DNA from: a virus
Reading direction: 5' to 3' (one strand)
IMG/VR virus record: IMGVR_UViG_3300045988_020923
Span: 1 to 56,125 of that record
Length of the DNA: 56,125 bases
Position numbers and translations under genes: made by a program. Below, piece by piece: positions 8,674-56,125 of this stretch (the stretch's first letter is position 1; every line of letters begins with the position of its first letter). Below the pieces are notes generated by a model. That model was given only the letters and a program-made list of their open reading frames with translations, made no database searches and was not told where the DNA came from.

Positions 8674-10688
8674 TGGTCAATGTATCGCAAGATATCATAA
8701 AATCCTTCAACGAGGGCAACAAACAGACTGCCCTTATTGAGGTTACTGCTGGCAGCAAGACGTTCACCATCACCGATGCAGATATCATTCAGGGCGGGTT
8801 GAAGATTGACCGGTACTGCGTGACCAACAGCAAAATCGAGGTCGGTTCTGCGGTTGCGTCTGAACTGTCCTTGAAGCTGCAAAACTACGATGGCAAGTTC
8901 AATGATGTTTCCTTTGAGGGCGCTGTCCTGAACGTCAAAATCGGCATCAAACTGTCCAGCGTTCTTGAGAGTGCAACGCTAGGCAAGGGCATTCTAAGAC
9001 GCATGATTCTTGGCTCTGCGTCCTCTGACCAAGACGTTGCGTATGTTCCCTGCGGTCTTTTTATCGTGGACACCCCGCCCCGCAAACTGAGCACAATAAG
9101 CATCTCTGCGCTGGACTACATGGTCTTGTTTGACCGCGAGGTGAACGCTTCTGCACTCTCCTTCCCTATCCACGTTGATGCGCTTATCCAGAAAATTTGC
9201 TCCATTTGCAACGTCACGCTTGCAACGGATGTTTCGGTGCTGCCGAACCACTATTTTAGCATCGGCGGTCTGCCTGATACAAACCAGACTTTGACCTACC
9301 GCCAGCTTTTGCAATGGTGTGCGCAGCTTACAGGCACTTGCGCATTCATGGATGGCAGCGGACGGCTTGTGCTGAAATGGTACGAGCAGACTGGTGTGAC
9401 CATCACCGCAAGTGAGCGTTATTCCAGCGATATGTTGGAGAACGACATCACCATTACAGGTTTTACCTGTGACGATGGCAACGGCAACACCTACCTGTCC
9501 GGCACAGCAGATTATACGCTTGACCTGAGTGACTGCGGCTTCCTGACCAACGCCTACGAGGGTGTTTTGAAGGAATTGCAAACCGCACGCGGCGGGTTTG
9601 CTTACCGTCCATACAGCGCCACCATCAAGTCTGCACCGTATCTGTTTCCGCTGGACATGATACGCTACAAGGACAAAGACGGCGTTGTACATGATACCAT
9701 TGTCACCAACGTTACGCTGGCTCTGAACTGCAACACAGCGATTTCCGGTGCGGGCGAGACGGTCACAAGTTTTTCTTACGCGCAGTCCACAAGCGGCGTT
9801 ACGAGCCAACAGGCTGCGACCGACAGAGCGAACCTTGAAAAGATAAACCAGACTGCTACGCAGACTAACCAGAACAAGCAGGACTTGACGCAGTTCAAGA
9901 CACAGTATTCTTCTGATTTCAAAAAGACGCAAGCTGAAATTGAATCCCGCGTCACGAAGGAAACGTACCAGACTGACATGGCTGGCGTTTCTACGCGCAT
10001 CGGTGCAGCGGAAACAAAGATTTCTCAGAACGCTGATGCTATTATTCTTCGTGCAACAAAAGAAGAGCTTTATAGCATGATAACGTTTACTCCTGAAAAT
10101 GGGTTGGTCGTCACTCGTAGCGACTGGGAAGGCAAAGTTCAAATCACCGGTCAAAACGTACAAGTCGTTCGCGGAAACAATAAAGTTATTATAAACAACA
10201 ATGGCATAGACATAACGAATGCCTATGGAAGTGTTTCTATATACAGCGGTGGCATATCTTTTCACGGCATTCGCAACAGTAAGATTTTTGAATGGCCTTA
10301 TGAAAAAGATTCTTATGGCAACCCGATAGGCGAATTCGCTGCGCAAACTACAAAAATCGATCTTTCGTCCTACTCGTCTGTAATGCTGGTCTATGACACG
10401 CATAAAGATGGAACATGGTTTTCAGGTGGCGGCGGTGCTGGTAGACTTACGGTCGTTCTTCCTGTTAATGGGCAAACGTACTCTTATGCTTATCCGTGGA
10501 ATACGGTACACTGGCGAAAGGTAACAGTATCATATAATGGTATCACTTTTGGAAATGGAAACGAGAGAACGTCCGACTATAAAAATAACGTTATAACTGG
10601 CGTGATACATTTGGAAGTTCCTATTTCTGATGGTGTTAATAAAAACGATAAGGTTTGCCGCCCGTTGGAACTATACGGTTTTATGTGA
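8673..10688 (+). CDS. Tail tip / Tal-like baseplate protein
   Basis: 671 aa; N-terminal region resembles prophage-tail (Tal) family, central coiled coil, C-terminal beta-rich domain; synteny. Confidence 0.55.
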   Translation: MVNVSQDIIKSFNEGNKQTALIEVTAGSKTFTITDADIIQGGLKIDRYCVTNSKIEVGSAVASELSLKLQNYDGKFNDVSFEGAVLNVKIGIKLSSVLESATLGKGILRRMILGSASSDQDVAYVPCGLFIVDTPPRKLSTISISALDYMVLFDREVNASALSFPIHVDALIQKICSICNVTLATDVSVLPNHYFSIGGLPDTNQTLTYRQLLQWCAQLTGTCAFMDGSGRLVLKWYEQTGVTITASERYSSDMLENDITITGFTCDDGNGNTYLSGTADYTLDLSDCGFLTNAYEGVLKELQTARGGFAYRPYSATIKSAPYLFPLDMIRYKDKDGVVHDTIVTNVTLALNCNTAISGAGETVTSFSYAQSTSGVTSQQAATDRANLEKINQTATQTNQNKQDLTQFKTQYSSDFKKTQAEIESRVTKETYQTDMAGVSTRIGAAETKISQNADAIILRATKEELYSMITFTPENGLVVTRSDWEGKVQITGQNVQVVRGNNKVIINNNGIDITNAYGSVSIYSGGISFHGIRNSKIFEWPYEKDSYGNPIGEFAAQTTKIDLSSYSSVMLVYDTHKDGTWFSGGGGAGRLTVVLPVNGQTYSYAYPWNTVHWRKVTVSYNGITFGNGNERTSDYKNNVITGVIHLEVPISDGVNKNDKVCRPLELYGFM

Positions 10689-19184: not shown

Positions 19185-19757
19185 TCAATCCTCCAAGAAA
19201 TCCTCCAACTCAATCTTCCCATCTGCCGCTGCAACTGCCAGAGCGTACACGAACTGTCCAATCGTCATGCCGTGTCGCCTTGCTTCACGGTTGATATACT
19301 TGCGCTCTTCCTCGCTCATAAGGATGGTAATGCGCTTTGAACGCTTACCGTCACCGCTTGCAACACCCTGATGCGATACTGGCATCGGAATTTTTTTCTT
19401 TGTCAAGCCAGCTTCGGCAAGTGCGCTGGGAACATCGCCTTGTTCGATAAGACGTTGAACTTCTTTCGCCTGTTTCAGCTTCTTTGGCTTACTTTCGCTT
19501 ACTACGGCATTGTTTGGCTGTGTTTCGCTGTCTTTGGCTTGCTTCGGCTTAATACTGCTTAACTGTGTTTCACTGGGCTGTGTATGGCTGTCTGTGGCTT
19601 CACTGGGCTTAATCTGTGCTTGCTCGGCTTCGTTTGGCTTTGCTTGGCTTACTTCTTCTTCCTTCGGCTCACTTCGGCTTAATGGCTGCTCCGAAAAAAT
19701 AGGCTGAAAATCAAACCCGCCAAGCAAGCCTGTGGATTTTTTGCTGGTTGATTTCAT
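19185..19757 (-). CDS. Ribbon-helix-helix ParG-like centromere-binding protein candidate
   Basis: C-terminal KRITILMSEEERKYINREARRHGMTIGQFVYALAV is RHH-like. It lies downstream of parA. ATG 19757 is coupled (ATGA) to the upstream gene. The N-terminal half is a 10-aa periodic repeat. Confidence 0.6.
   Translation of the reverse strand: MKSTSKKSTGLLGGFDFQPIFSEQPLSRSEPKEEEVSQAKPNEAEQAQIKPSEATDSHTQPSETQLSSIKPKQAKDSETQPNNAVVSESKPKKLKQAKEVQRLIEQGDVPSALAEAGLTKKKIPMPVSHQGVASGDGKRSKRITILMSEEERKYINREARRHGMTIGQFVYALAVAAADGKIELEDFLED
19461..19690. repeat. About 23 tandem copies of a 10-bp unit (plus-strand consensus TNTTTGGCTT) inside the ParG-like ORF
   Basis: 13 of 23 consecutive 10-nt blocks carry GGCT at the identical phase; the others carry CGCT, AGCT or TGCT variants. 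Confidence 0.8.
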
Positions 19758-20149
19758 TCTTCTTCCTCCCAATCTTCATCAAGGTCAGGAACGGTCGGCA
19801 ACGGCATCCAGTGAGTTATATTATGCGGCTTTCCGCTTTTGTCCCGCCATTCCTTAAAATCTTCTTCATAGCCTACAATTTCTACATCGTATTCGTCTTT
19901 GCTAAACCCGATAACGTATGGGTTTAGTTCATCTGGCATTTCATCTTCTGATTTCGCCCATTGATTATTTGCAAGCTCTTTCTGCCACTTTTTGCAATAC
20001 TTTTCAGCTAGATACCACTGAGAATGAAACGCCATTTCTTTCTCTTTATCGGAAAGGTCATTAAATGAAAAACCAAAATTGATAACGTAGACTTGCTCCG
20101 TGTCATCAACACAAGTTGCATTCAAAAGATGTGGGTACAAATCGCTCAT
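19754..20149 (-). CDS. Hypothetical protein with DUF551-like C-terminus
   Basis: 131 aa; NITHWMPLPTVPD motif; coupled to parA (overlapping stop and start). Confidence 0.5.
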   Translation of the reverse strand: MSDLYPHLLNATCVDDTEQVYVINFGFSFNDLSDKEKEMAFHSQWYLAEKYCKKWQKELANNQWAKSEDEMPDELNPYVIGFSKDEYDVEIVGYEEDFKEWRDKSGKPHNITHWMPLPTVPDLDEDWEEEE

Positions 20150-20916
20150 TTTTCTTCCCCCTTTACAATTTTCTGTGCCAACGCCTTGAAATCCTCTGCA
20201 CTGGTACTCTTTGCCGTGTCACCGCTAAACAAGCTGTGCCGTTCTGCCTGTGCCTTACGAACGCCCATAGACGGTCTAATCTTCACATCCAGCAGGGTTG
20301 TTCCCATGCTCTGCGCAATCACAGGAAGCTGCTCTACAACCTCTTTGGACAGGTTCTCGCGGCTCTTGTACTGGTTCAGAAGCAGACCTTCAATCTTCAA
20401 AGTCGGATTGAAGTATCTGCGGACATCGCCGATAGTCTGCGAAAGCTGGCTCAAACCAGCCAGTGCGTATCGGTCTGCTGTGATGGGAACGATGATGCTG
20501 TTGGCGGCGATCAGTGCGTTCACAAGCGCAAGACCAAGCTGCGGTGGAGTGTCCAGCACAATGTAATCGTACTGCCCGGACACGCTTTCAAGGGCTTCTC
20601 GCAGCCGGAAGTTCTTGCCCATGTCCCGGACAAGCTGCTCGTCAATGTCCTTCAATGCGTTGTCGGACGGAAGAATGTCACCAGCTTCACAGTGCTGGAT
20701 TCCTTCTTCGACTGTTCCTTGCCGGGTCATCACATCAAACAGGGTGCATACGTCCTCTGTCTGTGCGCCGTATGTGTCCGTCGCGTTGCACTGGGCATCG
20801 CAGTCCACCAGTAGGACTTTCTTGCCAAGCAGCTGCAATGCACCAGCCAGACAGGTGCTTGTGGTGGTCTTTCCTGTGCCGCCTTTCTGGTTGGCGACAG
20901 CTATGATTTTTGCCAT
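20146..20916 (-). CDS. parA: ParA-family partition ATPase
   Basis: Deviant Walker A motif (KGGTGKTTTS in IAVANQKGGTGKTTTS); 256 aa typical length. Confidence 0.9.
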   Translation of the reverse strand: MAKIIAVANQKGGTGKTTTSTCLAGALQLLGKKVLLVDCDAQCNATDTYGAQTEDVCTLFDVMTRQGTVEEGIQHCEAGDILPSDNALKDIDEQLVRDMGKNFRLREALESVSGQYDYIVLDTPPQLGLALVNALIAANSIIVPITADRYALAGLSQLSQTIGDVRRYFNPTLKIEGLLLNQYKSRENLSKEVVEQLPVIAQSMGTTLLDVKIRPSMGVRKAQAERHSLFSGDTAKSTSAEDFKALAQKIVKGEEK

Positions 20917-22350: not shown

Positions 22351-22455
22351 TCCACATTCTGTACACGATACTCCACTTTTTGTACACGATACCCTCCACT
22401 TCTTGTACACGTTCCTCCACTTTATGTACACAATGCTCCACTTTTTGTACACGTT
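22351..22455. repeat. Five direct iterons (TCCACTTTTTGTACACGNT), spaced 21/23/21/21 bp
   Basis: Copies start at 22351, 22372, 22395, 22416 and 22437. Confidence 0.85.
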
Positions 22456-22505
22456 CTTACTATATATATAAACAAGAGATAAACAAGAGATAAATAATCA
22501 TCATC
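22456..22505. other. AT-rich segment with AAACAAGAGATAAACAAGAGATAAA direct repeat (possible unwinding element)
   Basis: ctatatatataaacaagagataaacaagagataaataatc lies immediately after the iterons. Confidence 0.4.
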
Positions 22506-22630
22506 AAATAGTGACGACGATACATTTTCAACAATTTCTTCTCTTCAATGGGAAGATTGTGGAAAACGACAACTTCTTTTGCTGAATAAGAAACGTCCAT
22601 CAAGCCCTATAATCTATCTGACGGTTCTAT

Positions 22631-22819
22631 CGTGTACAGAAAATGGAGTGCAATCACACCAATAGGGGACGAATTGACAAGTCATGCTTTGATGAACGAA
22701 AATTTCACGCTAGTTCGTTAATTACATCCGAAAAAATCCACTATTTACGATTCTATGGGGGACAAAATGACAACCCAAAATCATATTTATAACAGGCCTA
22801 TTGTGTACAAAAAGTGGAG
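22631..22819. repeat. Two outlying inverted iteron copies plus two GGGGACNAAWTGACAA direct repeats
   Basis: Inverted iterons at 22631-22648 and 22802-22819; GGGGAC repeats at 22665-22680 and 22758-22773. Confidence 0.65.
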
Positions 22820-26475: not shown

Positions 26476-26850
26476 ATGGAACAAATCATCACCTTAAAGG
26501 TAGACCTTGAGTACCCGGACGAAGCGCACCACGCCATTGACGAAGCGACAAAGGCCTACGAGGGAAGCAAAAAGTGCTGGAATGCCTTTGAAATCAACGA
26601 AGCCAAAAGCAGAGCACGAGACATTTTGTACAACCTGTGCAATGAAGGTTACAGCATGATATGGACGGTCACGGATGGCGCTGTCGGCCTGACGATCTGG
26701 ACAGATTTTAAGGAGCCTTGTTTTGGACAGTGCTATATGCCAAAAGAAAGCCTGTTTGACATCTGGGTCGAAAAGCTAGTTGCGCTGTGCGTTGCCACAG
26801 GCAAGGAAGTCCCGAAGTTCATCACAGATAAGGCTGGTGAGTGCTGGTGA
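26476..26850 (+). CDS. Hypothetical protein
   Basis: 124-aa ORF, GGAGGGG RBS. Confidence 0.5.
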   Translation: MEQIITLKVDLEYPDEAHHAIDEATKAYEGSKKCWNAFEINEAKSRARDILYNLCNEGYSMIWTVTDGAVGLTIWTDFKEPCFGQCYMPKESLFDIWVEKLVALCVATGKEVPKFITDKAGECW

Positions 26851-27032
26851 TGAAATTTCGTAAAGCGCAAAGCCACAAGCGCAGGCTGAAGCTTGCAATG
26901 GCTGCTGGCGTATCCAGAAACGATGCTAACAAGGTGCTGTGGATGGAGAAGTCCATCAACCAGTGCTTTGAACGTCACAATCGGGAAGCCAGACTGAAAG
27001 AGGAGATGCAGCGTGGAAGAAAAGTACTGTGA
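26850..27032 (+). CDS. Hypothetical protein
   Basis: 60 aa from an ATG overlapping the previous stop (TGATG). Confidence 0.4.
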   Translation: MKFRKAQSHKRRLKLAMAAGVSRNDANKVLWMEKSINQCFERHNREARLKEEMQRGRKVL

Positions 27033-27423
27033 ACGCTGCGGCCTGTATCTTGGCGTAGTCAGACCGACAAGACGGTACTGCTCCGAGTGTAAGCGCAAGG
27101 TTGACAAAGAGCGTGACAGGAAGCACAGGAAGGCTGGAATTACATTCAAGCCCCGTAAGGCATTCTGCGCATACTGCGGCAAGCCGATGCTGAAAAAAGT
27201 AGCATCGCAGAAATACCACAATGGATGCGCTAAGAAAGCCTACAACGCAAAGGCGAACCTGAACGCGAAGGCAGCGTACAAAATCAAACAGCAAGAAAAC
27301 AAGAAGCTGGAAAAGACGTTTCCATCCATCGGAGAAGTACAAGCCCTTGCGGACAAGCTTGGCAAGCACTACGGCGAAGTTTCGCAGATGCTTGCAACAG
27401 GGGAGTTGACCTATGAACGGTAA
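27013..27423 (+). CDS. Zinc-ribbon protein
   Basis: 136 aa, GTG start; CERCG...CSEC and CAYCG CxxC pairs. Confidence 0.45.
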   Translation: MEEKYCERCGLYLGVVRPTRRYCSECKRKVDKERDRKHRKAGITFKPRKAFCAYCGKPMLKKVASQKYHNGCAKKAYNAKANLNAKAAYKIKQQENKKLEKTFPSIGEVQALADKLGKHYGEVSQMLATGELTYER

Positions 27424-27506
27424 GTATTACGGAAAGCGGGAAATCCGCTGGCACAACCGGGAGAAAGACCGGCTGGAACGCATCAATAAAGAAAGAGTGA
27501 GCAAAA

Positions 27507-34448: not shown

Positions 34449-35207
34449 ATGGCAACACTCCCGAAGCGTGGTCGTGGCAGACCGCCGCTGACCGAAGCGG
34501 AAAAGAAAAAGCGTGAGAAGCGGGCGCAAAAGGCGAAAGAAGAGGCTGCTGCGAAGCGCGAGAAAGAGCGTGAGAAGAAGAAACAACAGATGCTTAATAA
34601 GCGGAAATCTATCCGCTCACAGGTGAGTAAAAAGGTGAAAGAACAACAGGAGTTAGCAATCACGAGGTCTAAAATGCTGAACACAGGCGATTTGCAGTCG
34701 AGAATCGGTGATGAAGAGGACAAGAAGGTCATCGGCATGATTGCAGCCAAGTATTTTGGCGACCTTCCGAGCGTGGACATGAACAACCCGATTGAAGTTC
34801 AGCAACGTCTTGACTTCTTCTTTGACGCTTGCATCGAAGCTAGAATCTCCCCTGTGGTGGAATGGATCGCACTGGTGCTGGGCATCGAATGGGTGAGCCT
34901 GAAGCAGATTATGGCGGGAAAACGCCGTGACGACAGCTTGCAGCAGAAGTACATCCTGAAACTGATTCTTCAAATGCAATCCATGTGGGCATACAACGGT
35001 ATGTACGGTCAGGAGAACCCGGCAGAGTGGATTTTCCGAGCCAAGAACTACTTTGGTATGCGTGATAACGTGGAAGTCACCGTTGCACCGCCCGAACAGC
35101 CGTTGGGCGATGCCCAGAGCGCAGAACAGCTCGCCCAGAAGTACCAGACGGCTTTGCCGAAAGGGATTGACGTGGAGTACAGAGAAGTGACAAGCGATGG
35201 GAAGTAA
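34449..35207 (+). CDS. terS: Terminase small subunit-like protein
   Basis: RGRGRPP N-terminus, FFFDACIEARISPVVEWIALVLGIEWVSL (HTH region) and NPAEWIFRAKNYFGMRDNVEV match the common Firmicutes TerS pattern. Confidence 0.65.
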   Translation: MATLPKRGRGRPPLTEAEKKKREKRAQKAKEEAAAKREKEREKKKQQMLNKRKSIRSQVSKKVKEQQELAITRSKMLNTGDLQSRIGDEEDKKVIGMIAAKYFGDLPSVDMNNPIEVQQRLDFFFDACIEARISPVVEWIALVLGIEWVSLKQIMAGKRRDDSLQQKYILKLILQMQSMWAYNGMYGQENPAEWIFRAKNYFGMRDNVEVTVAPPEQPLGDAQSAEQLAQKYQTALPKGIDVEYREVTSDGK

Positions 35208-39638: not shown

Positions 39639-39898
39639 CAGAACTCAAGAGATGTCCGTTTTGCGGCAAGAACGCAGTTTACATTGGCGTGTGCGATGAT
39701 GAAGGCAACTTTCATGGGCGTTTGGGATGCGAGTACGAACAAGACCCGTGGAGCGGGCTTTCTTATGACTTGCATCACGAAGGATGGGGCAAATGTATCC
39801 TTTGCACGGATGGAGACAATCAAAGCATGGGTGGCGCACTGTTTGACACGGCAGAGGATGCTATCGAAGCATGGAACAAACGCTACAAAGAGGACTGA
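39635..39898 (+). CDS. Lar-family restriction alleviation-like protein
   Basis: LKRCPFCGKNA start and AIEAWNKRY end. Confidence 0.7.
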   Translation: MTELKRCPFCGKNAVYIGVCDDEGNFHGRLGCEYEQDPWSGLSYDLHHEGWGKCILCTDGDNQSMGGALFDTAEDAIEAWNKRYKED

Positions 39899-39900
39899 GT

Positions 39901-40581
39901 ATGGAGCAGGAACACAAGCCGAGAACATCAATGATTCTTCTGTTAGAACACGTTCATGCGATGGACGAGCTGACAAACGAGGAATTTGGAGCATTCATCC
40001 GTAACTACGCGCAGTATGTTGAAACTGGGCTTGAGCCAGCATACGACAACGACCGTGCTATGCGGATGCTCTGGAAAGTAGTTAAAGCGTTCGATGATAT
40101 GAACGTGCAGAAGATGGAAGAACGTGATAAGCGTAGACGAGAAGCAAACAAGAAAAATATAAACAAGCGTTGGAACGATAAAAAATACGAAAGCATACCA
40201 ATGGTATCACATGATACGAATGGTATAAATGGTATACCAAACATACCAACTGATACGAATGGTAGCTTATCTGTATCTGATTCTGTATCTGAATCTGATA
40301 AAAAAGAAAAATGTGAAAAGAAAAATACCAACGAAGTAAAACGCTTCAAAGCACCGACTGTCGAGCAAGCAAGAGAATACTTTTCAGAGAAGGGCTACAT
40401 GGAATCAGAAGCAGATCGGTTTGTTGACCACTTCACGGCAAATGGCTGGAAGGTCGGAAAATCGCCTATGAAGGACTGGAAAGCTGCTGCACGGAACTGG
40501 ATGCGTAACGTGAAAGACTGGAACGGTGGCTATCAGCAGACAATGGCTGAATTGCCTGACGAGGGAGACTTTCTACGGTGA
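39901..40581 (+). CDS. Replisome organizer / origin-binding protein candidate
   Basis: Immediately upstream of, and overlapping, the DnaB-like helicase; the C-terminal FKAPTVEQAREYF...FVDHFTANGWK motif is common in phage replication organizers; contains an internal DNA repeat module. Confidence 0.55.
   Translation: MEQEHKPRTSMILLLEHVHAMDELTNEEFGAFIRNYAQYVETGLEPAYDNDRAMRMLWKVVKAFDDMNVQKMEERDKRRREANKKNINKRWNDKKYESIPMVSHDTNGINGIPNIPTDTNGSLSVSDSVSESDKKEKCEKKNTNEVKRFKAPTVEQAREYFSEKGYMESEADRFVDHFTANGWKVGKSPMKDWKAAARNWMRNVKDWNGGYQQTMAELPDEGDFLR
40195..40266. repeat. Origin-box-like repeat module inside the organizer gene (TGATACGAATGGTA x2, ATGGTATACCAA, GCATACCAA)
   Basis: GATACGAATGGTA at 40213 and 40252; the module recurs at 43686-43750. 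Confidence 0.6.
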
Positions 40582-41801
40582 ATATTGAAAATCAGACCCA
40601 ATACATCCTGTTGGGGGCGGTCCTCACGTTTTCTGAGTATGCCGATGTGCTGCAAGACCTTAAAATCGACGATTTCTGCCCAGAACTGCATGATACATTC
40701 GCTGCCATTCGTGGCTATTGGGAACACAACGACAAGTGGAACCCGGTAGAAGTCATGGGACGGTACGATAACTGCAAGAAAGCAATGGGCGAATGTCTTG
40801 ATGCCTTCGGTGCAGAGTTCATCCGCAACGTCACACACGACATGATGCTTGGATGGGCGAGAATCGTCAAGGAACAGGCGGCGTTGTCCAGAGCCAGAGA
40901 GATTGCGTTCAAAATCGTTGATGGCTCGACCAGATACGCAGACCTGACAGGAATTTATGAGCAGCTAGGTGAAGCAATCAACCTGCACAGCGAGAGAAGC
41001 GATTTTATCCCAATGTGCGATGGCATAGACAACTACATCCGCAAGCTGGATGATAAGCCGGAGTATATCAGCACAGGGCTTAAAGTGCTGGATAACAACT
41101 TGCATCTTGTGCTGGGCAACTTCGTTGTGATCGGCGGCAGACCCAGCGCAGGTAAAACCGCTCTGTCCCTGCAACTTGCCTGTGAAATAGCCAAAAGCGG
41201 ACGTAAGGTGGCGTACTTCAGCTTAGAGACCGACCCTGATACCCTCTACGCTCGTGTCATCGCAAATCAACTAGGCGTACCGCTTCACACGGTCAAAAAC
41301 AAGACCGTCAGCATTAACGAACTTGACCGACTGGCAGCCATCAAGAAATATCCGCTGTTCGTCCGCTCTGCCGCTGGCAAGAGCGTTGGGTGGATTAGAA
41401 CGCAGTCCATCAGGATGCAAGCCAAAGTAGTGTTCATCGACTATTTGCAGCTTATTCATCAAGCCGGAGCGAAAGACCGATACAGTGCCGTCACAGAGAT
41501 CAGCATGGCACTGCATGAGTTCGCACAGTCCACAGGAACGCTGGTGGTAGCACTTGCACAGCTCAATCGAGAGACCGCAAGAGCAGGTATCCCACCGACT
41601 GCCGCAGACTTGCGAGAATCCGGGCAAATCGAGCAGGACGCAGATGCAATCATCCTGCTGGCACAGAACGTGACCACGAAAAAGCGGCCAGAGCAGCATT
41701 ATCATTTTGCGCTTGAGAAGAACAAAGAGGGCAACGTAGGGTCGCTAGACATCGCGTTCCAGATGGAAACACAGCAGTTCAAAGAATGCGTGTGGATGTA
41801 A
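40578..41801 (+). CDS. DnaB-family replicative helicase
   Basis: The [16 protein letters not shown] Walker A, the IDYLQLI motif, 407 aa. Confidence 0.85.
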
Positions 41802-42108: not shown

Positions 42109-43026
42109 ATGAAAATCGGATTGATTGACGTAGATGGACACAACTTCCCAAACCTTGCATTGATGCGGATTTCAAGCTACCACAAGGCAAAGGGCGATGA
42201 TGTTGAATGGTGGTGGAGTGATTTTATCCACTATGACATCGTGTACATGAGCAAGATTTTTTCAGACGTGTACAGCCCTGACGTGCCGGAACCCTTGAAT
42301 GCTGACAAGGTGATTAAAGGCGGCACAGGATACGCAATCCGCACAGTGGACGGCAAAGAAATATTCGATAAATCGAAAGACGTTGATTTACCGCATGAAA
42401 TAGAAAAGTCTTTCCCCGATTATAGCATTTACCCACAGTTTCCATTTGCAGTCAGCATGACAAGTCGTGGATGCCCTAGAGGATGTTCCTTCTGCCATGT
42501 TGCAGCAAAAGAGGGAAGATGTGCCGTAAAAGTGGCAGATGTGAGCGACTTTTGGTGTGGTCAGGACGAAATAAAAGTGCTTGACCCAAACATCACAGCT
42601 TGCAGAGAGAAGCGTGACCTTATGCAGCAGTACATTGATACCCACGCCAAAATCGACTTTACGCAAGGTCTGGATATTCGCTTGTTGAATCAGGCAGACA
42701 TCGAGGACATCAACAAAATGCGTATTGGCACGTTGCATTTTGCATGGGATAACCCTAACGATGACTTGAAATGCAAGTTTGAGGATTTCGCAAAGGGATT
42801 TCGGCGCAAGTCAAACATTGGCATGGTTTACTGTCTGACGAACTTCAACAGCACGTTGGAACAAGACCTGTATCGCATCTACACACTTCGTGATCTGGGC
42901 TACGACCCCTATGTGATGATTTACAACAAGCCATCTGCGCCGAAAGAGATTCGGCACTTGCAAAGATGGTGCAACAACAAGATAATTTTCAAGTCGGTGA
43001 AACGATTTGAGGACTACATGGCGTAA
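42109..43026 (+). CDS. Radical SAM enzyme
   Basis: The SRGCPRGCSFCHV CX3CX2C cluster motif; N-terminal Rossmann-like segment; 305 aa. Confidence 0.8.
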   Translation: MKIGLIDVDGHNFPNLALMRISSYHKAKGDDVEWWWSDFIHYDIVYMSKIFSDVYSPDVPEPLNADKVIKGGTGYAIRTVDGKEIFDKSKDVDLPHEIEKSFPDYSIYPQFPFAVSMTSRGCPRGCSFCHVAAKEGRCAVKVADVSDFWCGQDEIKVLDPNITACREKRDLMQQYIDTHAKIDFTQGLDIRLLNQADIEDINKMRIGTLHFAWDNPNDDLKCKFEDFAKGFRRKSNIGMVYCLTNFNSTLEQDLYRIYTLRDLGYDPYVMIYNKPSAPKEIRHLQRWCNNKIIFKSVKRFEDYMA

Positions 43027-43038
43027 AGGAGAACGACT

Positions 43039-43281
43039 ATGAAAAAGATTTTGACCGCATTCGTATCCGCTCTGACTGGCATTATGCTGATGACTGGATG
43101 CAACAAACAGGTGGTAGACCTGACGTATAGCTACTCGTGGGCACAGCTGAAAATGCCTGATGGAACGATTGTCGAGGGCAAGCTGAATAGTTGGGACGAT
43201 TACGAGGGCGACCAGCTGCAAGTAAAGATTGACGGCGTGACCTATCTGGTTCATTCGTCCAACGTGGTCTTGAGACATTGA
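43039..43281 (+). CDS. Small lipoprotein candidate
   Basis: Signal peptide MKKILTAFVSALTGIMLMTGC with a lipobox-like MTGC. Confidence 0.6.
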   Translation: MKKILTAFVSALTGIMLMTGCNKQVVDLTYSYSWAQLKMPDGTIVEGKLNSWDDYEGDQLQVKIDGVTYLVHSSNVVLRH

Positions 43282-43307
43282 AAGCGAATACAGAATCTGA
43301 GCGCATG

Positions 43308-43335
43308 GGCTGTCAGCAATGGCAGCCTTTTTCTT
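43308..43335 (+). terminator. Rho-independent terminator ending the early operon
   Basis: 8-bp stem GGCTGTCA/TGGCAGCC, GCAA loop, TTTTTCTT tail. Confidence 0.7.
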
Positions 43336-43685
43336 AACTCCAAGAGAAAGCCCGTTTTAAGGCGTTTTAGATGCTAGGTGATAACTTTATAGACTTCGCC
43401 ACGAAAATTCGCCACAGACGCTTGTAGGCGGCTCTCCGTTGATGTTGATGGTATATCTCAAACTAGACCATGCAATTAGACCGATGCAGGAGCGTGGAGA
43501 ACGGCTTTTCGAGGTCAGACGTGAAAGTTATCGGGTCAATCAGAAAAACGCGGCAGACAGGCTCTTACACGCCTTTCCGGCGATGATAGCAGCCAGATGA
43601 GCGGATGTCAACGACTATTTGTCCAATCACAGGGCTAATTGAGACGAAAGCAAGATGTGTGAGACGAAATGGACGCGATTATTGC

Positions 43686-43750
43686 ATACCAAGCGATACG
43701 AATCGTACCAGTTGATACGAATGGTATGCGTTGGTATCATGGTATACCAA
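43686..43750. repeat. Second copy of the origin-box module (non-coding)
   Basis: GCATACCAA, GATACGAATCGTA, TGATACGAATGGTA (43713) and ATGGTATACCAA are shared with 40195-40266. Confidence 0.6.
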
Positions 43751-43823
43751 TCTTCCCCCCTTTCTTCCCCCTCTTTCCCCTACAACCCCTATTACCCCCT
43801 ATAATCCCCCTAACTCCCCCCTC
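43751..43823. repeat. Seven phased C4-6 tracts with about 10-bp period (G-tracts on the minus strand)
   Basis: The blocks tcttcccccc tttcttcccc ctctttcccc tacaacccct attaccccct ataatccccc taactccccc. Confidence 0.8.
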
Positions 43824-43844
43824 AAACAAATAAATTGTTTGAGG
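43820..43844. other. Perfect 10-bp-stem hairpin CCTCAAACAA-ATAAA-TTGTTTGAGG flanked by C5 runs
   Basis: Read directly. Confidence 0.6.
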
Positions 43845-44723
43845 CCCCCACGCAAAAATAGTGCGACAACTGAAAATGACAACAAGATGTTTTCCAAAGG
43901 TTCTTTCCCCCTACAACCCTCTATCTCCAAAGCTACACCGTTAGCCAACAGAGCAGGCCGTAAGCGAGAACTGGCGTGAGGTTCGGACTGGTGAATGGTC
44001 TACGACTATTTCACATGGAAAATTGATCTCATTTTGTAATCGGTTGAATATGTAGAAATGTTGCACATCGGCATGAGCAGTTGATTGAAAGCTGAAAGCA
44101 ACTGACCGATTGGATAGTCTTATTAGATGATTAAAAGTATTGAGGTATTTGCCGAATGGACAATCCTAGTTGATTGGTATAGTATGATTGTAGTTGTTGG
44201 TAATTAAATCGGAGAAGAACAAACCGAATCGGATGGTACGACTATTCCAGTAAAATAATAGTTAAAAAGATTGAGTAATTGTCTGCGACTATTATAATAA
44301 GTACGATAGATAAAGATTTTGAGGTAATGCGATTGGGATTAAAATTGACAGGCGTCTTGACAGTTATTGATTTTGGGAATGTCGGACGACTTAGCGACTA
44401 TCGCACCTTTCTTTCTCTAAAAGGCAAACGACTATTTCACACAAAAAATACACGACTATTTGACGATGGTTCGCAAGAAAACGCTACGACTATTACTCTA
44501 CGACTATCAGTGAGCTGCTTGCTACTATACTATATATAGGACTTTCAAAATCTAGTTGTCTGATGACTTACGACTATTCTGCGACTATTTTATTGGAGAA
44601 ACTACGACTATTGGCTACGACTATTCCGGCTGGAACGCTGCGACTATTGCTGACATCTATTGGCTATCGGGCGAAAGCCCGAAAAGAGTTGCGGCGGTAG
44701 CCGCCAATGGTTCCGCGCCGCCC

Positions 44724-44790
44724 GTGCCAGGAAGAAAGCATAATGCTAGGCTAATGCCAGGCTAACCAGGTGCCAGGCTAATGCCAGGCG
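44724..44790. repeat. Tandem 11-bp ATGCCAGGCTA-type repeats (about 5 copies)
   Basis: The run gtgccagg...atgctaggctaatgccaggctaaccaggtgccaggctaatgccaggcg. Confidence 0.7.
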
Positions 44791-45207
44791 TGGGAAACAT
44801 CAAAACCCCGCCGGGCTGGCATGGTTTGCGATGTGTTGCACCGTCTGGCATGGATCTATAACAGGGGCACACCGCTACGCCCTTATATACATTATTATAA
44901 TAGGGCGGCTGTGCTGTCCTGTATAGCGTCCGGCGTGGCGCTGGTATCTGGTATGCGCTGGAGGTGCTGCGTCGCTGTGATGTGCTCCAACGTGTCGCAC
45001 ACGGTATTATAGCCGCTTTTGTCGGTCTGGTATCGCGGGCGGTGGAATAGGGAAAATCGCAGGAAAAGCGCCTGTAAAGCCACGTGTGCCGTTTTGCGGT
45101 GTGAGCTGTATAACTGCATGAACGGAACAAAACGCGCTGTAAACGCTTGTATTGGCTGCATTGCAGCAGGGCAAAACAAAAGCCCTGCACCATTAGCAGA
45201 TGCAAGG

Positions 45208-45238
45208 CAAAAGAAAAGCCCGGTCAGTAATGACCGGG
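45208..45238 (-). terminator. Rho-independent terminator of the minus-strand small-gene operon
   Basis: The stem GCCCGGTCA/TGACCGGG with a GTAA loop; the minus strand continues with TTTTCTTTT. Confidence 0.6.
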
Positions 45239-45410
45239 TGAAATGCTTCTTATTTGGACGCTTTAAACAGCGCTGAGAAAAACCAGAAGCAAAACAAGAC
45301 ACAAGATAATATCACTTGTCGTACCCCCTCAGACCACGCTAAAACGCTTGTAAACGGTCTTTTTGCTGCATTCTGCATAAATATCCGGGTGCGCTGCCTG
45401 CAAAAGCTTG

Positions 45411-45593
45411 CTAATCGAGTCGGACACTTTGCACGTCCTTATACATCACCTTGCAGGCGCCTGCGATAACCTCCGGTGCTCCCTGCATCATAGCAATTAT
45501 TTCATCCCGCAGGCTGTTCCGCATCTGCTCCGCTTGTTCTGCAAGCCGCTTATATTCCCGATACTCGTTACACTTGCATTCTAGGTCAGTCAT
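45411..45593 (-). CDS. Hypothetical coiled-coil protein (60 aa)
   Basis: GGAGGG RBS; start 2 nt after the upstream stop. Confidence 0.45.
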   Translation of the reverse strand: MTDLECKCNEYREYKRLAEQAEQMRNSLRDEIIAMMQGAPEVIAGACKVMYKDVQSVRLD

Positions 45594-45595
45594 TT

Positions 45596-45874
45596 TTAAC
45601 CCTCCATATAAAACGCGGCGTATTTTCCCGTTTTTGCGTTTGTGCAATTATAATACTCAAATGACGCTACCACGTTGTTAAAATCGTTCCGTGCTCCTAT
45701 GTCATCGATAATAAATCGTTCCCGGCTTTTTCGGTTTGTTGTATAGGGGTATTTCGGAACAAAATTTACCTGGCAAATTGCCACCGTCAACCCGTTCACG
45801 TATGCCGCGCACGCCTGATTTTTCGGGACACGTTTCCACGTTTTTCCGTTGCTTGTAAAGCTGCGTTTTTTCAT
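45596..45874 (-). CDS. Hypothetical protein (92 aa)
   Basis: GGGAGG RBS; MKKRSFTSNGKTWKRVPK... Confidence 0.5.
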   Translation of the reverse strand: MKKRSFTSNGKTWKRVPKNQACAAYVNGLTVAICQVNFVPKYPYTTNRKSRERFIIDDIGARNDFNNVVASFEYYNCTNAKTGKYAAFYMEG

Positions 45875-49482: not shown

Positions 49483-50229
49483 ATGAAGAATGTAGCTGCG
49501 TATGTCAGAGTTTCCACGGATGGGCAATGTGGCGAAGATAAATTCGGAATGGAAGCCCAGAAAGAGCAAATCGAAGAATACTGCCGCAAGAATGATATGA
49601 ATATCATCAAGTGGTTTACTGATGCTGGCGAATCTGGCGCAAAGGAAAGGCCGGGATTTGACAGTATCGTGTATGGCGATGTTTCCAATCCTCCGTATGA
49701 AGCGGTTGTTGTTGCAAAAAGCGATCGAGTTGCAAGAGACATCAACGTTTATTATTATTACAAGATGCTTCTGCTCAAAAAAGAGATTTCTCTTATTAGC
49801 GTTGCGGAAGATTTTGGGAAAATGGGAGTTTTTTCTACAATGCTTGAAGCGTTTACCCTTTGCTGTGCTCAAATGGAGCGTGAGAACATCACGAAAAGGA
49901 CTTCTAGTGGCAGAGCCATTAAGGCTGCAAGCGGCGGCTATAGCGGTGGTAAGGCTCCGATGGGATACGAAGTTAAGGATGGTGAACTCTCAATTAAAGA
50001 AGATGAAGCAATAATTGTTCGGCGTGCTTTTGAATTGCGTGATGCTGGCAATACAATTCGTGGCGTAGCAGACAGATTAAATGAAGAAGGTTACTGCGGC
50101 AGAAATGGAAAGCCGTTCACCTCTAGCACAATTCAATCTATCCTTGGGAACAGAAAGACTTATGAGGGCTATTACCGCTACGGAAAAAATGATGAATGGG
50201 TAAAAGGAAAGCAGGAACCTATTTTATAA
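49483..50229 (+). CDS. Serine recombinase (resolvase catalytic domain plus recombinase domain, no zinc-ribbon/coiled-coil)
   Basis: The AAYVRVSTDGQ catalytic Ser motif, VVAKSDRVARD, and a recombinase-domain pattern ending GKQEPIL; 248 aa. Confidence 0.85.
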   Translation: MKNVAAYVRVSTDGQCGEDKFGMEAQKEQIEEYCRKNDMNIIKWFTDAGESGAKERPGFDSIVYGDVSNPPYEAVVVAKSDRVARDINVYYYYKMLLLKKEISLISVAEDFGKMGVFSTMLEAFTLCCAQMERENITKRTSSGRAIKAASGGYSGGKAPMGYEVKDGELSIKEDEAIIVRRAFELRDAGNTIRGVADRLNEEGYCGRNGKPFTSSTIQSILGNRKTYEGYYRYGKNDEWVKGKQEPIL

Positions 50230-50809: not shown

Positions 50810-50877
50810 TTGATTTTGAGAAAGAAATTTTCTAAATTCGCATTATAAAAACCGAATATTTGATTTTTGTGCAGTTG

Positions 50878-50920
50878 TAGGCACTCTTTACATTTTCAGG
50901 TAGGGGGTGCCTATTTTTTT
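50878..50920 (+). other. Hairpin plus T7 run abutting the terL start codon
   Basis: The stem TAGGCAC (50878-84) / GTGCCTA (50907-13), a 22-nt loop containing the G-rich SD, then TTTTTTT and the ATG. Confidence 0.4.
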
Positions 50921-52588
50921 ATGCAGCCAAAGCAGTGTATCGCCATCATCGACAGCATCAAAGCGTATGCAAAGCAGAATCCGACCGAAGCACAGGTCTA
51001 TGAGGACTGGTTTCAGGCGGTGGTAAACCTGAGAGATGCCCTGCCGCAAGACAAGCGGTTCGATGCCTACAAATACTCTGGTGAGTTGCGCTCTGTCTGC
51101 GCAGCCATGATGGGCAAGATGAAAACAGGCGAGGACGTGGCGAAGGTCTATGACATTATCGGCCGGACGTACCTGTTTGAAGCAAAGGACGTGTTTGACA
51201 GCTATTGCATCTACCTTGAATGGAATCGTGCGCCGGAAAAGAAGTTCTACCAGCCGAGAAGAAAGGTGCTTCTGACGCTGGTTCGTGACCTAGAGGACTT
51301 GTTTTTCCATCGTGTAGAATTTCTTGGAGTAAGTCAACCTCCGAGAACTGGAAAAAGTACGCTTTGTATATTTTTTATCACATGGCTAATGGGCAACCGC
51401 CCTGACGTTGCATCGGTTATGAGCGGACACTCTGACAAGTTGACAAATGGCTTCTACGGCGAAGTGCTATCTATCATCACCGACCCCGTAACCTACAACT
51501 GGGGTAAAATCTTCCCTGATGTTCAGCTTGTGGACAAGAGCGCAAAGGATGAAAGCGTTGACCTGAACCGAAAGAAGCGTTTCCCAACCCTGACCTGTCG
51601 CTCCATCGGCGGCACGCTGACTGGTGCTGTTGAAATCGGAGAGGGCGGCGTTCTGTACAGCGATGACTTGATTGAGGACTTGGAGGAAAGCCTGAACGTA
51701 GAGCGTCTGAACAACAAGTACGATGCCTATCTAAACCAGCTGAAAGACCGTAAAAAGCAGGGCGCATTGGAGCTGATGGTCGGCACACGTTGGAACGTGC
51801 TTGACCCTCTGGGACGCATCCAAAACCAGTATGCAGACAACCCGAAGTACCGATTCCGTGTGATTCCTGCGGTGGACGAAAACGGACACAGCAACTTCAA
51901 TTATGACTATGGCGTTGGTTTTGACGATGCCTACTATGCTGATATGAAAGCCAGCATTGACGATGCAACATGGTGGGCAAAGTACATGGGCAAGCCCTAT
52001 GTGCGTGAAGGATTGCTGTTCCCTGCCGATGAACTGCGGTATTTCAATGGCGTTCTGCCTGACGGAGAGCCCGATCGCAAGCTCATGGTCATGGATATTG
52101 CATGGGGCGGCGGCGACTTCACGGCCTGCCCTATTGCCTATGTGTACGGAGATGCTGTGTTCATCCCTGATCTCGTGTTTAATAACGGCGATAAGACCGT
52201 GACCAGACCGGAAGTCGTGGGCAAAATCGTCCAGCATAAAATCAATGTGGTGCGCGGCGAAGCCAACAACGGCGGTGACGAATACTGTGATGTGGTAGAC
52301 AGCCAGCTCCGGCAGCAGGGGTATCACTGTTCTGTCCGCAGCCAGCGTGCGCCAAGCGGACAGAGCAAACTATCCAGAATCATCCAGTATGCGCCTGATA
52401 TCAAACGGTTCTATTTCCTTGACGAAAAGCACCAGTCGAAAGAGTATAAGGCGTTCATGGAACAGGTGACGATGTTCACGCAGCTTGGCAAAGTTCCTCA
52501 CGATGATGCGCCGGACAGTCTGGCACAGCTTGCCGATGAATTGTATAACGGAATCAGTAAAATTGAGCCTGTCAAGAGGCCTTTTTGA
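50921..52588 (+). CDS. terL: Terminase large subunit
   Basis: The Walker A-like SQPPRTGKST, nuclease-domain acidic motifs, 555 aa (alternative upstream start 50867). Confidence 0.85.
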   Translation: MQPKQCIAIIDSIKAYAKQNPTEAQVYEDWFQAVVNLRDALPQDKRFDAYKYSGELRSVCAAMMGKMKTGEDVAKVYDIIGRTYLFEAKDVFDSYCIYLEWNRAPEKKFYQPRRKVLLTLVRDLEDLFFHRVEFLGVSQPPRTGKSTLCIFFITWLMGNRPDVASVMSGHSDKLTNGFYGEVLSIITDPVTYNWGKIFPDVQLVDKSAKDESVDLNRKKRFPTLTCRSIGGTLTGAVEIGEGGVLYSDDLIEDLEESLNVERLNNKYDAYLNQLKDRKKQGALELMVGTRWNVLDPLGRIQNQYADNPKYRFRVIPAVDENGHSNFNYDYGVGFDDAYYADMKASIDDATWWAKYMGKPYVREGLLFPADELRYFNGVLPDGEPDRKLMVMDIAWGGGDFTACPIAYVYGDAVFIPDLVFNNGDKTVTRPEVVGKIVQHKINVVRGEANNGGDEYCDVVDSQLRQQGYHCSVRSQRAPSGQSKLSRIIQYAPDIKRFYFLDEKHQSKEYKAFMEQVTMFTQLGKVPHDDAPDSLAQLADELYNGISKIEPVKRPF

Positions 52589-53009: not shown

Positions 53010-53087
53010 GTTGCATTAGCTCAGTTAGGCTAGAGCATCCGGCTCATAACCGGACATACATTGGTTCAAATCCATTATGCAGCACCA
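53010..53087 (+). tRNA. tRNA with CAU anticodon (Met, or Ile2 if lysidine-modified), encoded CCA
   Basis: Manual cloverleaf: acceptor GTTGCAT/ATGCAGC, D arm GCTC-AGTTAGGCTA-GAGC, anticodon arm TCCGG-CTCATAA-CCGGA, T arm ATTGG-TTCAAAT-CCATT (one T-T mismatch), then ACCA. Confidence 0.75.
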
Positions 53088-55740: not shown

Positions 55741-56109
55741 ATGAAGTTTACCCGAAACACGGTCAACGGAATCAACGATACCATCCTTGCTTCCAATGAC
55801 TACACCGCCATTCCCTTTACCGTGACAGAAACTGCTGCGGTTAAGGCTGGCTACCCCATGACGCTGGCTGGCAAGAAAGCTGTTGCTGCTGGCGAGACTG
55901 GTTCTAAGACCATCAATGCTGACGGCATCCTGCTGTATGACGTTGACCCGGCAGAGAACCCCAACGCTGCCCTGCTGATTCGTGGTGTTATCGACACCAA
56001 GAAGGCAGCAGCAAGTTCCAGCTTCACCTTTGACGCTGACGCAATCAAGGCACTCAAGACCGCCGTTCCCGGCATCTTCTGCCGTGACAACATCAGCGTG
56101 AACGCTTAA
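55741..56109 (+). CDS. Head decoration-like protein
   Basis: 122 aa, AGGAGG RBS, immediately upstream of the gpE-like capsid gene across the circular junction (lambda D-E arrangement). Confidence 0.5.
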   Translation: MKFTRNTVNGINDTILASNDYTAIPFTVTETAAVKAGYPMTLAGKKAVAAGETGSKTINADGILLYDVDPAENPNAALLIRGVIDTKKAAASSSFTFDADAIKALKTAVPGIFCRDNISVNA

Positions 56110-56125
56110 TAGGAGGTAAAACAAC
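56071..56125. repeat. Terminal 55-bp duplicate of 1-55
   Basis: Exact identity read directly. Confidence 0.95.

Follow-up and report, generated by a model that had tools for sequence, protein, structure and literature searches.

We analysed a viral stretch of 56,125 nucleotides (IMG/VR record IMGVR_UViG_3300045988_020923, taken over its full length and hereafter called the window), focusing on an interval of 2047 bp in which the short sequence CGACTAT is repeated many times in one orientation. This interval is preceded by a rightward early/replication operon, with genes for a DUF6291 protein, a DnaB-like helicase, a radical-SAM protein and a small lipoprotein, and is followed by a leftward block of accessory genes, including one for an AntA/ORF6C antirepressor, and further on by a serine-recombinase-like gene, a YjcQ-like gene, the gene of the large terminase subunit (TerL), a tRNA-Met and the portal gene (Table 1). 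One terminator-like hairpin marks the end of the rightward operon and two others the end of the leftward block, and the repeats are therefore located between convergent terminators. The first 55 bases of the window are identical to the last 55 (1-55 and 56071-56125), which shows that the assembly is a complete circle of about 56,070 bp; this identity probably corresponds to a k-mer 55 overlap. All motif counts given below are thus counts over an entire genome of 56.07 kb.

Eighteen copies of CGACTAT, all on the + strand, are present in the genome, against 3.5 +/- 1.7 (maximum 9) in dinucleotide shuffles. Fourteen of the 18 copies are grouped in a single 1-kb stretch, between 43612 and 44647 (43610-44648 when considered as 10-mers), without any second cluster over the whole circle; the other four are at 10574, 38233, 41438 and 43034. 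The start-to-start spacings of the 14 boxes are 391, 236, 47, 109, 34, 24, 34, 14, 70, 11, 23, 13 and 23 bp. An earlier first-pass annotation, made by a model from the letters alone, had described this region as fourteen same-strand YRCGACTATY boxes following the early-operon terminator, with five boxes in 80 bp at 44569-44648 (spacings 11, 23, 13 and 23 bp), two pairs of boxes 14 and 11 bp apart and a further copy near 10574. The common orientation, the terminator (43307-43328), the group of five, the two pairs (44485/44499 and 44569/44580) and the isolated copy were all exact, and the strand-wise count over the genome placed the motif density above the shuffled expectation. The number of fourteen was correct for CGACTAT boxes, whereas the strict 10-mer YRCGACTATY matched 11 sites only (0.54 expected). 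The three boxes outside this pattern are AACGACTATT at 43610 and 44427 and AGCGACTATC at 44393, so that the actual consensus reads NRCGACTATY or, more briefly, the heptad CGACTAT.

The same annotation had called the region a gene-free, AT-rich stretch of 2.1 kb, whose predicted open reading frames (ORFs) were products of the repeat. Gene callers indeed called no genes across the region on related contigs, and we recovered no conserved ORF in an alignment of 72 sequences (the window and 71 relatives). The ORF 44279-44539 was intact in 2 and the ORF 44556-44765 in 8 of these 72 sequences, both being frameshifted or stopped in the others, which supports their interpretation as artefacts of the repeat. 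The term AT-rich suited the array proper (43991-44660, 37% G+C versus 48.9% for the genome), not the whole gap (46%) or its right third (53%).

The array was present in every relative examined. In GenBank, the only matches were unannotated fecal phage contigs, and two of these contain a version of the region that is 79-86% identical and has 10-11 boxes. Scanning IMG/VR with the motif only (three CGACTAT within short gaps) retrieved at least 120 loci; about 60 of the matches listed were homologous arrays sharing the spacing signature ...34, 24, 34, 14, 71, 11, 23, 13, 23, and the array consensus in these approximately 60 related contigs was a.a.tcTaCGACTATT.cac. In the 72 aligned sequences, identity to the window was 0.89 for the boxes versus 0.68 for the spacers, and the block 44380-44725 was nearly invariant. 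We also assembled a family set from viral contigs, made of 96-100% identical copies, selected by the gene 34449-35207, a predicted small terminase gene (terS, see below). All 68 members with enough downstream DNA had 8-15 boxes, located 4.5-8.8 kb after terS, and the array was retained in a relative whose TerS was only 36% identical (locus L203). The boxes are real, confined to one place in the genome, conserved and non-coding. The positions of contig ends, considered as a proxy for genome ends, were discarded, these ends being arbitrary as expected for circular assemblies.

Arrays of the same heptad were also found in phages that share no DNA homology with the window. About 18 of the loci listed in the motif-only scan belonged to this second class and contained dense CGACTAT arrays with spacings of 7, 11, 13 and 21 bp, each of them overlapping the 3' end, or starting at the stop codon, of a gene encoding a protein of 160-300 aa homologous to the product of 34449-35207. 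In the loci of this class that we inspected (L020, L064, L112 and L013), the array was located between the terS stop and a terminator-like hairpin. A motif-blind test was performed by scanning with the TerS alignment, keeping one genome per bacterial species, and produced 72 loci encoding TerS 22-39% identical to that of the window, in hosts that were mostly Oscillospiraceae, Ruminococcus, Acutalibacteraceae, Faecalibacterium, Dorea, Flavonifractor and Collinsella. Several of these loci were on chromosomal contigs of 170-530 kb, apparently in integrated prophages. From -150 to +700 relative to the terS stop, CGACT[ACT]T was found 295 times on the gene strand and 6 times on the opposite one, corresponding to a density of 4.9 per kb in this zone versus 0.157 per kb per strand elsewhere in the loci (31-fold), with at least four boxes in 43 of the 72 loci. 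When repeats were searched de novo, some 7-mer was present at least five times after terS in 39% of the loci versus 2.6% of control windows, and nearly all these 7-mers were CGACT-based.

The sixth base of the heptad varied by lineage (CGACTAT, CGACTTT or CGACTCT), and other heptads occupied the same place in other TerS lineages: TAACTTT, present 17 times (L272), AGTATAG, TGAAAAT and ACAAAGG. The heptad variant tracked TerS similarity (38% versus 32% identity, permutation p < 0.0005), a relationship to which gene-site linkage by descent contributes. As judged from these comparisons of sequences, the boxes are physically tied to gp3-like terS genes across many phage lineages and their variants follow the TerS lineage. 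The 17 copies of TGTAACTTT in L272 (180-640) form two clusters flanking a hairpin, and L250 (10450-10560) contains ten perfectly contiguous CGACTTT heptads. Helical phasing, a possibility raised by the 11-, 23- and 34-bp spacings of the window, was not retained, the commonest spacing across lineages being 7 bp, that of contiguous heptads. Almost all long loci encode, 0.9-9.6 kb downstream of terS and on the same strand, a TerL homologue (33-73% identity) and a portal protein. Throughout the clade (L208-L279 and L280), the two terminase genes were apart, with variable accessory genes, partly encoded on the opposite strand, filling the 1-10 kb between them. We detected neither a TerS homologue nor boxes in the first 20 kb of the Eggerthella phage EL753P1, whose TerL is 38% identical.

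The protein encoded by 34449-35207 matched the array-adjacent proteins of these other phages with BLASTP E-values from 1e-7 to 7e-18. Those homologues match Pfam PF16677 GP3_package (E 5e-15) and phrog_606 (terminase small subunit), and more distant database homologues (P0033-P0039) also carry PF16677. PDB searches with the protein sequence and the profile gave nothing significant. The AlphaFold model (predicted local distance difference test, pLDDT, of 78) was compared by Foldseek with 350,542 PDB chains, and the top of the list was the P22 TerS nonamer 3P9A, with a template-modelling (TM) score on the target of 0.52-0.57, a root-mean-square deviation of 3.3-3.6 over about 130 columns and a non-significant E-value of 1.2. 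By homology, the product of 34449-35207 is thus predicted to be a P22 gp3-like small terminase. In the TerS alignment, an AT-hook-like motif of the RGRGRP type is conserved at the N-terminus and a further segment resembles a helix-turn-helix; we consider both, speculatively, as candidate DNA-contact elements. In the window, terS is 8.4 kb from the array and 15.7 kb from terL, all three being on the same strand.

According to the first-pass annotation, no protein of the window could be assigned to the boxes by sequence, and the proteins proposed for electrophoretic mobility shift assays included YjcQ-like, RHH and XRE proteins encoded near TerL. The first statement did not hold, as genes homologous to the predicted gp3-like terS directly precede the same boxes elsewhere, and TerS appears to be a better candidate than these YjcQ-like, RHH and XRE proteins. 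No other TerS candidate was found beside TerL in the window or in the relatives, where the genes upstream of TerL are recombinase-like or assorted accessory genes. A serine-recombinase-like gene (Resolvase and part of the Recombinase domain, about 200-250 aa) is present slightly upstream of TerL in many phages of the clade, with 27-65% identity (for instance L018 4505-5269, L020 7154-7915, L064 2620-3219, L113 2534-3289 and many genome loci). We considered its product as a possible box binder and found it less likely than TerS, since no homologue was present in the locus sequences examined for the array-bearing L013 and L112 and since terS directly abuts the arrays.

A cultured relative, the Clostridium phage Maintenon (L280), encodes a TerL 52% identical to that of the window. 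Its TerS homologue (26723-27472, annotated as terminase small subunit) is 2.65 kb upstream of TerL, the interval between the two genes including tRNA genes. A short direct terminal repeat of 478 bp at position 27,277 was obtained for this phage with PhageTermVirome (PMC10197239, Table 2). If this position refers to the coordinates of the deposited 57,045-bp record, the repeat would cover the last 195 bp of terS and about 280 bp of the following sequence; the chance of a random position being this close to the Maintenon terS is about 2%. The intergenic stretch after this terS contains short direct repeats of its own, of the TTGTTAGCTTAT type.

Because the same arrays directly follow homologous terS genes in unrelated gut phages, we consider it likely that the array of the window is a recognition site of the phage packaging machinery, of the pac type, for the gp3-like TerS 34449-35207. 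A pac/TerS region was one of three candidates among which the first-pass annotation had not chosen; the comparative evidence supports it and disfavours the two others, a partition centromere or incompatibility locus and a regulatory sink. TerS would presumably form a ring oligomer like P22 gp3 and would bind many same-orientation CGACTAT heptads at once by repeated equivalent contacts, the sum of these many weak contacts producing a specific nucleoprotein complex at one place in the 56-kb genome. This complex would recruit TerL, which would cut in or near the array, and the concatemer would be packaged rightward, towards the late genes, either by a headful mechanism or with fixed ends and a short terminal repeat as reported for Maintenon.

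Several observations weigh against this interpretation. With distances of 8.4 kb to terS and 6.2 kb to terL, the array is linked with TerS only through the relatives. It is free-standing in this genome, separated from terS by 4.5-8.8 kb of early/replication genes throughout the family, whereas it abuts the terS stop in most relatives, the position beside terS being that of the 43 motif-blind loci and of the approximately 18 motif-selected loci listed. CGACTNT arrays were absent from 29 of the 72 motif-blind TerS loci, and the repeats of Maintenon are not CGACTNT, the coordinate frame of its published terminus being moreover assumed. The protein 34449-35207 itself has no Pfam, PHROG or PDB sequence match, 3P9A was ranked first without reaching significance, and lineages with an identical heptad show little conservation of the putative helix-turn-helix residues. 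It may be another protein of this module that binds the boxes, which the gene linkage would allow. We infer the binding of TerS, the cutting by TerL at this place and the direction and mode of packaging from sequence. Finally, a block of AT-rich direct repeats located where a replication operon ends has the appearance of an origin as well.

In a lytic origin, the boxes would be iterons recognised by a DUF6291 initiator acting with the DnaB-like helicase, in AT-rich DNA prone to unwinding. The direct repeats, the 37% G+C of the block, its non-coding nature and its position between terminators, 1.8-2.2 kb downstream of the DUF6291 and DnaB genes, would all suit such a function, and the array follows the DnaB gene in all members of the family. 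This gene exists, however, as two alleles, about 97% and 49% identical to that of the window, and no DUF6291 homologue was detected with the 49% allele. Iterons normally change with their initiator, whereas here the array keeps its sequence and spacing whichever DnaB allele is present and whether the DUF6291 gene is there or not. In most loci of the other lineages, the boxes follow terS with no DnaB or DUF6291 nearby. Their 7-bp unit is also shorter than the 17-22 bp usual for iterons, and the Rep_3 gene of this genome has its own iterons at 22351-22457. We thus consider an origin unlikely.

The strict strand bias of the boxes (295 versus 6) would also be expected from an RNA or transcription control element, either a protein-binding 3' untranslated region on the terS mRNA or a site that serves a regulator as sink or enhancer. 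The arrays of L020, L064, L112 and L013, being located between the terS stop and a terminator-like hairpin, would be transcribed, and the array of the window is followed by two small hairpins (44667-44705) for which RNAalifold gave a consensus on the + strand only. The columns of these hairpins are nearly invariant in the family, and L203 has two G:C to G:T changes that keep the pairing on the + strand only, as RNA or single-stranded DNA. In the window, however, the array comes after a terminator-like hairpin and is far from terS. These two hairpins were the only conserved structure that RNAalifold recovered from the 72 aligned sequences on both strands, with no structure across the array and no long RNA, and a permissive Rfam scan of 42900-45700 gave only three sub-threshold chance matches. 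No RNA-binding candidate is conserved with the array, and the strand bias can be explained by the inheritance of gene and array as one module. This explanation appears about as improbable as an origin. A partition centromere or incompatibility locus, bound by a partner of ParA such as the RHH-like protein 19185-19772, is the least probable of all: the genome encodes Rep_3 and ParA, has no obvious centromere beside parA, and type Ib/II centromeres are arrays of short direct repeats, but some 23 kb separate the array from parA, the iterons at 22351-22457 account for the Rep_3 incompatibility determinants, and the same arrays are carried next to terS by chromosomal contigs of 170-530 kb, neither ParA nor Rep_3 having a homologue within 10 kb in the 72 genome loci or the viral loci.

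The pac-type TerS recognition proposed here may be compared with known packaging sites. In SPP1, three sets of direct repeats are found at terS (PMC4737164). Considered together with the arrays beside terS in the relatives, the proposed site resembles the pac of SPP1/SF6 (pacL-pacC-pacR; boxes a, b and c; TerS G1P), likewise a signal at terS made of short direct repeats, in several sets, which a ring of TerS is proposed to engage through its DNA-binding domains (PMC4737164, PMC9611059). It differs from SPP1, where a few repeats cover the terS promoter and 5' end, by one heptad repeated 8-17 times, either where terS ends or kilobases away, and by a TerS predicted to be of the gp3-like family (PF16677); in SF6, the repeats have little effect on binding in vitro. 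In the P1 pac, PacA binds TGATC(A/G) hexamers flanking the cut, seven of them in 162 bp, which are regulated by Dam methylation. The likeness to P1 would reside in several copies of a very short motif clustered around a cut, specificity being provided by multiplicity, although the terminase proteins are unrelated.

With P22, the window would share the TerS family (by Pfam in the homologues, and by the top fold match, at E 1.2) and, as judged from the relatives, a pac tied to the terS gene, but the pac of P22 consists of one asymmetric sequence of 22 bp within gene 3 (PMC9611059) and not of a multi-copy array, and the P22 terS adjoins terL instead of being separated from it by 1-10 kb as in the clade or by 15.7 kb as in this genome. 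Multiple TerS-binding elements beside the terminase cut site are also known in lambda, the cosB R-sites of gpNu1 (PMC9611059), binding being predicted in our case; in lambda, a cos system with cohesive ends, the R sites are three in number, 16 bp long and of mixed orientation, and IHF is also involved. The same-orientation direct repeats beside AT-rich DNA recall Rep_3 iteron origins, but the boxes differ from the five 21-23-bp iterons of this genome by their size (7-10 bp) and irregular spacing, are located 21 kb away, and follow terS in relatives.

In the literature searched, we found no prior description of heptad arrays at terS. The predicted novelty is an array of 8-17 heptads kept as a motif across deeply diverged TerS lineages and, in this genome, detached from terS. 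More tentatively, it is possible that a large clade of gp3-like TerS phages of gut Firmicutes uses a "heptad code", in which the subunits of the TerS ring would successively read 4-17 same-orientation 7-bp boxes, with variants by TerS lineage (CGACTAT, CGACTTT, CGACTCT, TAACTTT and others). Such a code would give the disputed model of nucleosome-like wrapping a sequence-specific form, and the array of the window would be a free-standing cis element kilobases from terS that may coincide with a short terminal repeat. The choice of viral DNA by TerS has been described as unclear and controversial, isolated TerS mostly binding weakly and without sequence preference (PMC9611059, PMC4737164). If the pac-type interpretation is correct, a countable array of a single heptad with natural variants would be a tractable system for multivalent TerS recognition and its sequence specificity. 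Pac sites would become predictable from sequence alone in hundreds of uncultured gut prophages, which could help to forecast the start points of generalized/lateral transduction and to build packageable vectors for gut Clostridia. The annotation would also be corrected, a 252-aa "hypothetical" early gene becoming a small terminase and an abundant human-gut element a phage-plasmid.

This last designation comes from the leftward "lysogeny" block of the genome. The combination of Rep_3, ParA and iterons, with no integrase in this block or among the genes scanned, indicates that the element is a phage-plasmid and not an integrating prophage, with its plasmid origin at the iterons (22351-22457); both points were missed by the first-pass annotation. 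No match was found among PLSDB plasmids. The NikA/RHH-like gene (19185-19772, - strand) contains 10-bp-periodic imperfect repeats of the TTGGCTT / TTCGCTT type at 19455-19692, which could correspond to a repetitive linker in a ParA partner protein.

Table 1. Coordinates of the features discussed for the window (positions in the 56,125-nt stretch).
Feature	Position	Strand	Remarks
ParA ATPase	20146-20916	-	Leftward "lysogeny" block
Rep_3 plasmid initiator	21149-22261	-	Leftward "lysogeny" block
Five 21-23-bp iterons CTCCACTTTTTGTACACGATA	22351-22457		Directly upstream of rep, beside an AT-rich stretch
Inverted iteron copies	22628-22649 and 22799-22819		
Predicted P22 gp3-like small terminase (TerS), 252 aa	34449..35207	+	Proposed box binder, by homology
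DUF6291 protein	39871-40581		Rightward operon before array
DnaB-like helicase	40578-41801		Rightward operon before array
Radical-SAM protein	42109-43026		Rightward operon before array
Small lipoprotein	43039-43281		Rightward operon before array
Gene-free interval	43282..45328 (about)	.	2047 bp; between rightward early/replication operon and leftward accessory block
Terminator-like hairpin	43307..43328	+	End of rightward operon, upstream of array
Outlying box 1, AACGACTATT	43610..43619	+	391 bp upstream of main array; in the part of the gap variable among relatives
Main array, 13 CGACTAT boxes	44001..44648	+	Proposed multi-site TerS recognition (pac-type) DNA
Starts of main-array 10-mers	44001, 44237, 44284, 44393, 44427, 44451, 44485, 44499, 44569, 44580, 44603, 44616, 44639		
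Two small hairpins	44667..44705	+	Just after last box; CGGGC-GAAA-GCCCG, GCGGC-GGTA-GCCGC
Two terminator-like hairpins	45238-45219 and 45208-45182	-	End of leftward block
Serine-recombinase-like gene	49483-50229		Upstream of TerL
TerL, large terminase	50867..52588	+	phrog_38, E 7e-55; 6.2 kb downstream of array, same strand
tRNA-Met (CAT)	53010-53087		Between TerL and portal genes

Other small repeats were observed around the array. In the variable left part of the gap, 43687-43752 contains the tandem 19-bp repeat TACCA(A/G)(G/T)(C/T)GATACGAAT(C/G)G, present twice and followed by the palindromic GGTATCATGGTATACC; this may be the putative oriR of the first-pass annotation. A conserved C-rich block (43750-43830 and 43905-43925, + strand) exhibits runs of C4-C6 every 8-13 nt, with a possible G-quadruplex formed by the G-runs of the - strand, and is followed by a 10-bp inverted repeat at 43820-43844. 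This block is kept even in the relative with 36% TerS identity (L203, 15600-15690), and a similar CCCCCT...CCCTATA tract is present inside the presumed terminal repeat of Maintenon (L280, 9315-9360); it could be a cleavage region or a lytic origin. C-rich tracts were rejected as a second conserved element, being only about 2-fold enriched after terS, with G runs behaving much alike.

On the other side of the array, 44744-44789 contains two copies of the local direct repeat TGC(T/C)AGGCTAATGCCAGGC; the identity of this segment among relatives is 0-0.5 and it stands between two conserved blocks, being probably a variable insert. The nearest leftward gene (45329-45647, - strand) looks frameshifted: the ORF 45411-45647 ends with ...VRLD, and its conserved C-terminal part continues in another frame, in the ORF 45329-45427, with homologues in about 45 related loci.

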